Shown: piece by piece, positions 5,104 to 5,516 of the stretch
Position numbering within the stretch: position 1 is the stretch's first letter
Layout: each line of letters starts with the position of its first letter
Origin: Eledone cirrhosa
Taxonomy: Eukaryota
Direction: 5' to 3'
Assembly (NCBI GenBank): GCA_964016885.1
Contig: OZ024747.1
Coordinates: forward strand, 48,794,001 to 48,858,000
Length of the DNA stretch: 64,000 bases
The notes under the pieces: model-generated
Seen by the model: only the letters and a program-made list of their open reading frames with translations
Told to the model about the DNA's origin: nothing
Databases searched by the model: none
Translations under genes and position numbers: made by a program

Positions 5104-5310
5104 GAGAAAGTATGACCCCGACGGCAGAGCTCAAGCCGTTTCGACGGCTATTTCTGGACTAAAGTGACTTTAGTCCAGAAATAGCCGCCGAAACGGCTTG
5201 AGCTCTACCGTCGGGGTCATACTTTCTCCTATTACCCACTCTACTACCCTAAGTATTGAGTGCTCTGGTGCGTTATCGTCCATCTGGTTCTTTACCACAA
5301 CTCCTTCGTT
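5104..5310 (+). mobile_element. Fold-back mini-element family B (GACCCC family), copy 1
   Basis: ~60-bp arms gagaaagtatgacccc...ggggtcatactttctc, ~80-bp tail ending ttcgtt, TA flanks. Confidence 0.85.
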
Positions 5311-5325
5311 ATATATATATATATA

Positions 5326-5516
5326 GGAACGAGTAGGACCCCGACGGCTGAGCTCAAGCCGTTTCGACGGCTAATTCTGGACAGAATTAGCCGTCGAAAC
5401 GGCTTGAGTTCAGCCCTCGGGGTCCTACTCCTTCCTATTACCCACTCTACTACCCTAAGTATTGAGTACTTTGGTGCGTTATGGTCCACCTGGTTCCTTA
5501 CCACATTTCCTTCGTT
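5326..5516 (+). mobile_element. Family B copy 2
   Basis: Same architecture; separated from copy 1 only by (TA)n. Confidence 0.85.

Follow-up and report, generated by a model that had tools for sequence, protein, structure and literature searches.

Short hairpins in (TA)n repeats of Eledone cirrhosa as head-to-head pieces of a Penelope-like element, probably formed by twin target-priming on one sense RNA

How do short inverted hairpins with fixed outer ends and variable centres arise within (TA)n repeats? The question is raised by the window analysed here, a 64,000-nucleotide stretch of the Eledone cirrhosa genome (contig OZ024747.1, positions 48,794,001 to 48,858,000), in which the original prediction had placed six copies of a hairpin family, named family B.

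The window hairpins and their parent element

All six named hairpins were found where they had been predicted (6/6), each within (TA)n. They are built of two sense-equivalent arms set head to head, with outer ends at two sites, S and L. Coordinates below are given relative to S, the last T of the ...CCTAT that, as proposed, ends the short arm and merges into (TA)n; L corresponds to S+78.

5101..5163, minus strand: copy 1, S arm, the 3′ part of the pLTR from about −63 to site S, inverted
5169..5310, plus strand: copy 1, L arm, from about −63 via S and the 78-nt tail to site L
5311..5322, no strand: (TA)n target separating copies 1 and 2
5323..5382, minus strand: copy 2, S arm, from −59 to S, inverted
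5382..5516, plus strand: copy 2, L arm, from −56 to L
9464..9657, plus strand: copy 3, hairpin of S arm and L arm in (TA)n
19956..20160, plus strand: copy 4, hairpin of S arm and L arm with duplicated filler at the junction
32525..32593, plus strand: copy 5, complete S arm (−60 to S) and an inverted ~9-nt remnant from the end of the tail, by direct reading of the sequence
62373..62572, minus strand: copy 6, hairpin of S arm and L arm in reverse orientation

The L arm of copy 1 contains an Inr-like TTAGTC whose A (−60) is position 5172. Copies 1 and 2 are adjacent and, since their subfamilies differ, are likely separate insertions. The L arm of copy 2 carries the 3′ half of a hammerhead (GAAA, helix III, UH and the 3′ strand of helix I), with the predicted cut before 5419, S at 5438 and the tail at 5439-5516; as anticipated, the 5′ half is missing from all six copies. 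Copy 5, which had been described as a fold-back at 32523, instead consists of a 60-nt S arm to which the final ~9 nt of the tail are attached in inverted orientation; its arms have no overlap. The centres sit inside helix/loop II of the hammerhead, in agreement with the predicted fold position, and are unlike each other among the six copies. A genome-wide long-arm query returned 1083 candidates and 40 scored places, and tabulation of the 30 places fetched showed nearly every centre to be different, as expected of independent events and not of one amplified MITE. A MITE has a uniform interior and matching inverted-repeat ends; here the centres are variable and the ends unequal.

The parent was reached by walking out of one locus, L028, which runs upstream without folding back and leads into an ORF. 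Longer copies stop at S or at L, and because full elements run past L into the ORF, the 78-nt segment from S to L is the "tail" of a Penelope-like element (PLE). Many parent copies hold stop-to-stop frames of 860-870 aa, and tandem arrays located elsewhere in the genome, with a 3531-bp unit, encode an intact 717-aa ORF with RT and C-terminal GIY-YIG (QFDI, YRDD and VIYQC..YIG) and with the clade motifs RWR (37), SDKT (116), CNCPDRSIC (572), CNLCSEE (670) and CKH (698). Three pieces of the parent ORF gave no match in Pfam; the protein has 1920 homologues, with identity up to ~44% over a long alignment. Partial pLTR tandems, an inverted 5′-truncated copy and a tail are present in parent copies (L062, L166-L172), and TA flanks the S side as well as the L side, where (AT)3 follows the end at 89 of 90 loci, although the search pattern itself required TA. 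Judged by its motifs, the parent is an apparently autonomous PLE of the Hydra clade, with a C-terminal EN and (TA)n targets. The family B hairpins are pieces of its pLTR and 5′ leader, and not a separate small RNA.

According to the available part of PMC8557442, Hydra clade PLEs have a single ORF with RT and C-terminal GIY-YIG, the motifs RWK and DKT, a CxCX5C linker, and CxxC/CxH around E/N. The parent shares this ORF layout and these motifs (with RWR for RWK), together with (TA)n, partial tandems, the inverted 5′-truncated copy and a tail. It departs from them in tail length (78 nt versus typically 30-40), unit size (3.5 kb versus typically <3 kb), the U3-A8 hammerhead core and the ratio of about 70:1 between short twin-arm hairpins and ORF-linked 5′ ends. 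The Naiad clade was ruled out, as Naiads have an N-terminal EN in the same source.

As the original prediction had stated, the parent is absent from the window: blastn with the parent body was empty and tblastn gave only relatives with 38-46% identity. Longer copies with a linked PLE ORF and an upstream hammerhead half, which it had suggested looking for, do exist; in the parent this half reads YUGAKAA and not CUGANGA.

Just past L (about 2560-2575 in L062) the parent leader contains a pyrimidine tract followed by TAG, resembling a splice acceptor. A leader intron ending just after L, if real, would mean that priming at L needs unspliced RNA; a search for spliced copies without this possible intron found none, its three matches being point variants.

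Pairing of S and L ends and geometry of the arms

S followed by TA has 22,888 matches in the genome and S continuing into the tail 19,849, and L has 20,512 matches followed by TA (one exact pattern) and 291 read-throughs into the ORF leader, the reversed-pattern controls for these end and read-through counts being all 0. Short hairpins stand to ORF-linked ends at about 70:1. In a non-random sample of 90 L-end loci (the first 90 of 100 listed places, all on contig C1), automatic classification gave 58 with an inverted S partner, one with an L partner, six other or long, 22 single and three long. The first 30 listed S-end loci, likewise a non-random set from contig C1, of which 11 coincide by coordinates with the L-end sample, comprised 25 with a full inverted L arm, two with an interrupted L arm, three long and no S+S. 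In the sampled loci pairing is almost always S+L and never S+S. Since an independent choice of sites would hold S+L to at most 50%, the two ends appear to be chosen in coordination; the L arms without a partner (22/90) count against the mechanism favoured below.

We consider it probable that the hairpins, head-to-head pieces of the pLTR and 5′ leader, arise through twin target-priming on a single sense RNA. The GIY-YIG endonuclease would cleave both strands of a (TA)n target, and two RT active sites would prime cDNA internally on the RNA, with S serving one strand and L the other. Both cDNAs would then run off the 5′ end of the RNA, usually at a Pol II start at about −60/−64 and sometimes at a hammerhead-cut end at −19, and their 3′ ends would be joined by template jumping or microhomology, with A/T added. 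In an alternative final step, a jump to elsewhere in an RNA would yield tandem or ORF-carrying copies. The hairpins themselves would be abortive insertions, dead on arrival. In L1 twin priming, a single RNA is copied from primers on both target strands, which results in a 5′ inversion; here, in comparison, the two priming sites lie at fixed internal positions, and overlap between the arms is usually complete up to the RNA 5′ end.

A fold-back, as the original prediction had it, is an unlikely alternative. A cDNA primed at L would reach the RNA 5′ end, fold back and copy itself as far as S, where TAT microhomology meets the target, a process related to the self-priming put forward in the available part of PMC3846280. 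S+L pairing is equally predicted by it, and both arms are of the same subfamily, as it expects: among 56 two-armed copies the subfamily haplotype is common to both arms in 50 (mean of 13.7 and maximum of 23 in 5000 shuffles), which also fits one RNA or one source. The centres are correlated and often perfect mirrors. Arm ends within −40..−70 gave a Spearman coefficient of 0.66 (n=34), with 10 of 34 pairs exact mirrors, some of them short of −60, and the near-mirror centre of L061 carries a short repeat expansion on both arms; a correlation of this sort is predicted by fold-back or by later symmetric trimming as well.

Other features of the arms weaken the fold-back. With the tail on the L arm, it would have to start at L, and no S arm could then pass its L arm in the 5′ direction; yet the S arm reaches at least 10 nt beyond the L arm in 13 of 58 S+L copies (the reverse in 3/58), and in seven of the 58 the arms do not overlap, which could instead result from later one-sided deletions. 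Small offsets between arms are two-sided (14 versus 10). The inverted arms of long insertions are mostly unequal, and ORF-bearing copies with unequal arms and S at the 3′ end are hard to derive from a fold-back. The arms of each copy had also been said to share private variants; locus-private variants were one-armed in 22 cases and two-armed in only two, both in L101 with its palindromic junction.

Ends near −60 and at −19

The 5′ ends of the arms are clustered: of the 117 measured, a set excluding arms without a clean S anchor, 82 fall in −53..−65, 28 are shorter and seven longer. They pile up within hammerhead loop II at motifs that we take, from the consensus sequences, to be Inr- and TATA-like. 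At −60 the parent reads TTAGTC or TCAGTC, and about 30 nt upstream lies a TATA-like motif in the variants TATTCAAA, TATTTAAA and TATATAAA, this variability being a point against the twin-priming account. Several of the first 30 of the 291 read-through loci hold a piece from −59..−63 fused behind an internal ORF position (L204, L205 twice, L207, L227, L229 and L230), and two more hold a piece starting at −19 (L223 and L225). Such pieces are the expected trace of run-off followed by template jumping, and, as read in genomic copies, show an RNA with a 5′ end in the −60 region that apparently extends into the ORF. Because arms and template-jump pieces enter the ORF, the autonomous element's own RNA, in its 5′ part, is the likely template; of the short non-autonomous RNA with a defined 5′ end envisaged in the original prediction, the defined end is supported and the short template is weakened. 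Contigs were examined for three of four sequencing runs of a single study, of unknown kind and possibly from the source sample. Those of runs X1 and X2 have joints at −60/−59 and at −19, and TA ends that hang loose are seen at both S and L; contigs, however, cannot show RNA ends. A cap-templated extra G before −60 found no support in the local sample, where the preceding base is confounded by the other arm. We regard −60/−64 as a putative Pol II start.

Twin priming might also be correct with the −53..−65 pile marking a pause of the RT in the U-rich loop II, not a start of transcription, a reading that we find quite improbable. The U-rich tract and weak hairpin at loop II speak for a pause, as do the scatter of ends across 12 nt and the A/T runs at some centres. 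The upper edge of the pile is sharp, however, with 7/117 ends beyond −65, jumps restart at −59..−63 just as they do at −19, and the TTAGTC/TCAGTC motifs lie about 30 nt after the TATA-like one, if these labels apply.

A/T runs of up to 17 nt were observed at junctions beside −60 in L007, L027, L123, L128 and L181, as might arise from reiterative copying of the template end or from non-templated tailing.

The second class of ends, at −19, coincides with a predicted ribozyme cut. In 71 distinct long copies the upstream half in the parent reads YUGAKAA, with A8 in 71/71, variable N7, and U3 in 31/71 or C3 in 40/71, the C3 subfamily being oversampled by the query; these 40 copies carry a C3-A8 mismatch. 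Across the same copies pairing reaches 93-99% in helix I, 93-96% in helix III and 99-100% in outer helix II, with the second inner pair of helix II formed in only 28%, the NUH site is UC in 67/71, and the stems show almost no compensatory change. Folding of the young copy L203 returned a three-way junction no better than shuffles (z −0.18), and a C3-subfamily copy folded differently from L203. Rfam reported no hammerhead match at family B or in the parent pLTR. On anatomy, the parent pLTR would contain a type I hammerhead with a U3/C3-A8 core, whose predicted cut would leave a 5′ end at −19.

End patterns for tail-bearing arms only gave 633 matches at −19, 40 at −22 and 129 at −17, with the −22 and −17 control matches unchecked and acceptance rates that differ between patterns. 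Among the first 30 −19 loci, 22 truly start at −19 and eight represent mutations in longer arms. The S arm also stops exactly at −19 in nine of the 22, seven of these with a centre of 1-2 nt; the others comprise two nearly mirrored loci, three with an S arm to −57/−59 that may be microhomology joins, one jump, one tiny remnant and six without an S arm. That both arms stop at such a rare end suggests one RNA molecule, and the cut of a sense-strand ribozyme argues for a sense template; where both arms are complete at −19 and the centre is 1 nt, a fold-back would have neither loop nor priming stem, and an antisense template cannot yield ends at a sense-strand cut. The −19 pile may be read as an indirect genomic footprint of hammerhead self-cleavage. 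Most templates were presumably uncleaved, since the cut lies 5′ of both S and L and the RNA that starts at −60 is without the 5′ half.

That the hairpins descend from a pre-formed palindromic MITE or from a separate short RNA amplified as a unit is very improbable: their excess of about 70:1 over ORF-linked ends would suit it, and L205 and L233 leave room for short RNAs with such a 5′ end, but the centre differs at almost every locus, the arms end at unlike sites and several subfamilies match long ORF-bearing parents.

One tandem array, L233 (G000:C2:356029000-356034500), has a 299-nt unit derived from the parent pLTR. The unit contains the two halves of the hammerhead and a loop II that is shortened and fused at −60, and the whole can be described as a nascent retrozyme-like array. 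The hairpins were also compared with non-LTR retrozymes, which, in the available text of 10.64898/2026.07.22.740005, need tandem units with a whole type I hammerhead; they carry half a hammerhead in inverted orientation, and this class was rejected.

Relation to known systems and neighbouring sequences

PLEs regularly show inverted truncated copies and a tail on one side in the consulted portions of PMC8557442 and PMC3846280, and neither inverted pLTRs and tails nor the existence of two initiation sites is new; the parent element is ordinary, unlike its mechanistic read-out. In the part of PMC11167929 available, the PAc Poseidon protein cuts and extends both strands in vitro from two internal sites bounding the tail, with a dimer predicted. 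Family B agrees with it in the two start sites bounding the tail, the AT-rich targets and, as proposed here, the use of both strands and uncleaved RNA as the main template. It differs in having one site each per insertion, whereas no strand difference in start site appears there, so that the S+L asymmetry is unexplained by that system, and in having genomic copies that begin exactly at the predicted hammerhead cut, where no RNA-seq read of that study ends. Adineta Penelope (PMC3846280, in part) likewise has a head-to-head inverted pLTR, junction palindromes, a tail on one arm and a pLTR TATA and Inr; antisense self-priming is proposed there, whereas the ends found here match sense-RNA 5′ ends and some arms do not overlap. 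The U3-A8 core is a described variant of PLE hammerheads (PMC4209133, in part), which the parent resembles in being type I, with a 5-bp helix I and a long helix II with a bulge near G10.1; it differs in a long helix III and in a 32-34-nt loop II holding the putative promoter.

The literature searched, with subscription papers and supplements outside its scope, contained no report of PLE twin priming or short S+L hairpins, of a strict S+L rule, of run-off at defined sense 5′ ends or of a genomic trace of hammerhead cleavage; the accessible part of PMC13282606 has nothing on family B hairpins. An in vivo footprint of hammerhead cleavage is likewise absent from the available parts of PMC4209133 and PMC11167929. 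The origin of PLE inverted repeats and of the one-end tail is stated as open in the consulted text of PMC8557442, and that of PMC3846280 leaves sense versus antisense templating undecided; family B offers more than 20,000 independent insertion products that bear on how inverted ends form, and the intact ORF in the same genome makes the mechanism directly testable.

A wider proposal, to which we give an even chance, is that PLEs in general integrate by obligatory asymmetric twin priming, in which an RT-EN dimer would prime each target strand at a different one of two fixed sites on one sense RNA and the cDNAs would run off its 5′ end and be joined end to end. This single mechanism would account for partial tandems and nascent retrozyme arrays as well as for the inverted pLTR and the tail on one side only. 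If this is true, tens of thousands of "strong-stop" records in the genome mark where the element's RNA starts, and hundreds mark hammerhead cuts made in vivo. As a caution, abundant "MITE-like" hairpins in TA-rich genomes can be by-products of retrotransposons.

Other PLE-like sequences were noted in the window. Broken ORFs of other Hydra-like PLE families lie at 24786-27299 (+), 39077-41150 (−) and 13374-14929 (+), their RT parts being 38-46% identical to the parent. A canonical minimal type I hammerhead with a palindromic helix III at 27742-27813 (Rfam HH9, E 6e-6), about 450 nt past the ORF at 24786-27299, is likely the pLTR ribozyme of that ORF. A loose scan returned candidate hammerhead-like motifs at 4612, 13138, 16551, 16711, 18680, 19152, 20412, 28271, 28467 and 53961, two of them (4612 and 13138) with a U3-A8 core and some arranged as inverted pairs. 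A near-perfect inverted repeat of 1012 nt at 21534-24369, with (TA)n flanks and an 812-nt centre resembling minus-strand RT-coding sequence, is likely a long inverted PLE insertion. Hairpins of a second family unrelated to the first, family A (16835-17428, 31609-31913 and 61792-62330), are built in the same way: a short and a long arm end in (TA)n at fixed sites that are about 136 nt apart, the centres vary, and the arms of the copy at 31609 do not overlap. This family likely derives from another PLE and suggests that the anatomy is general.
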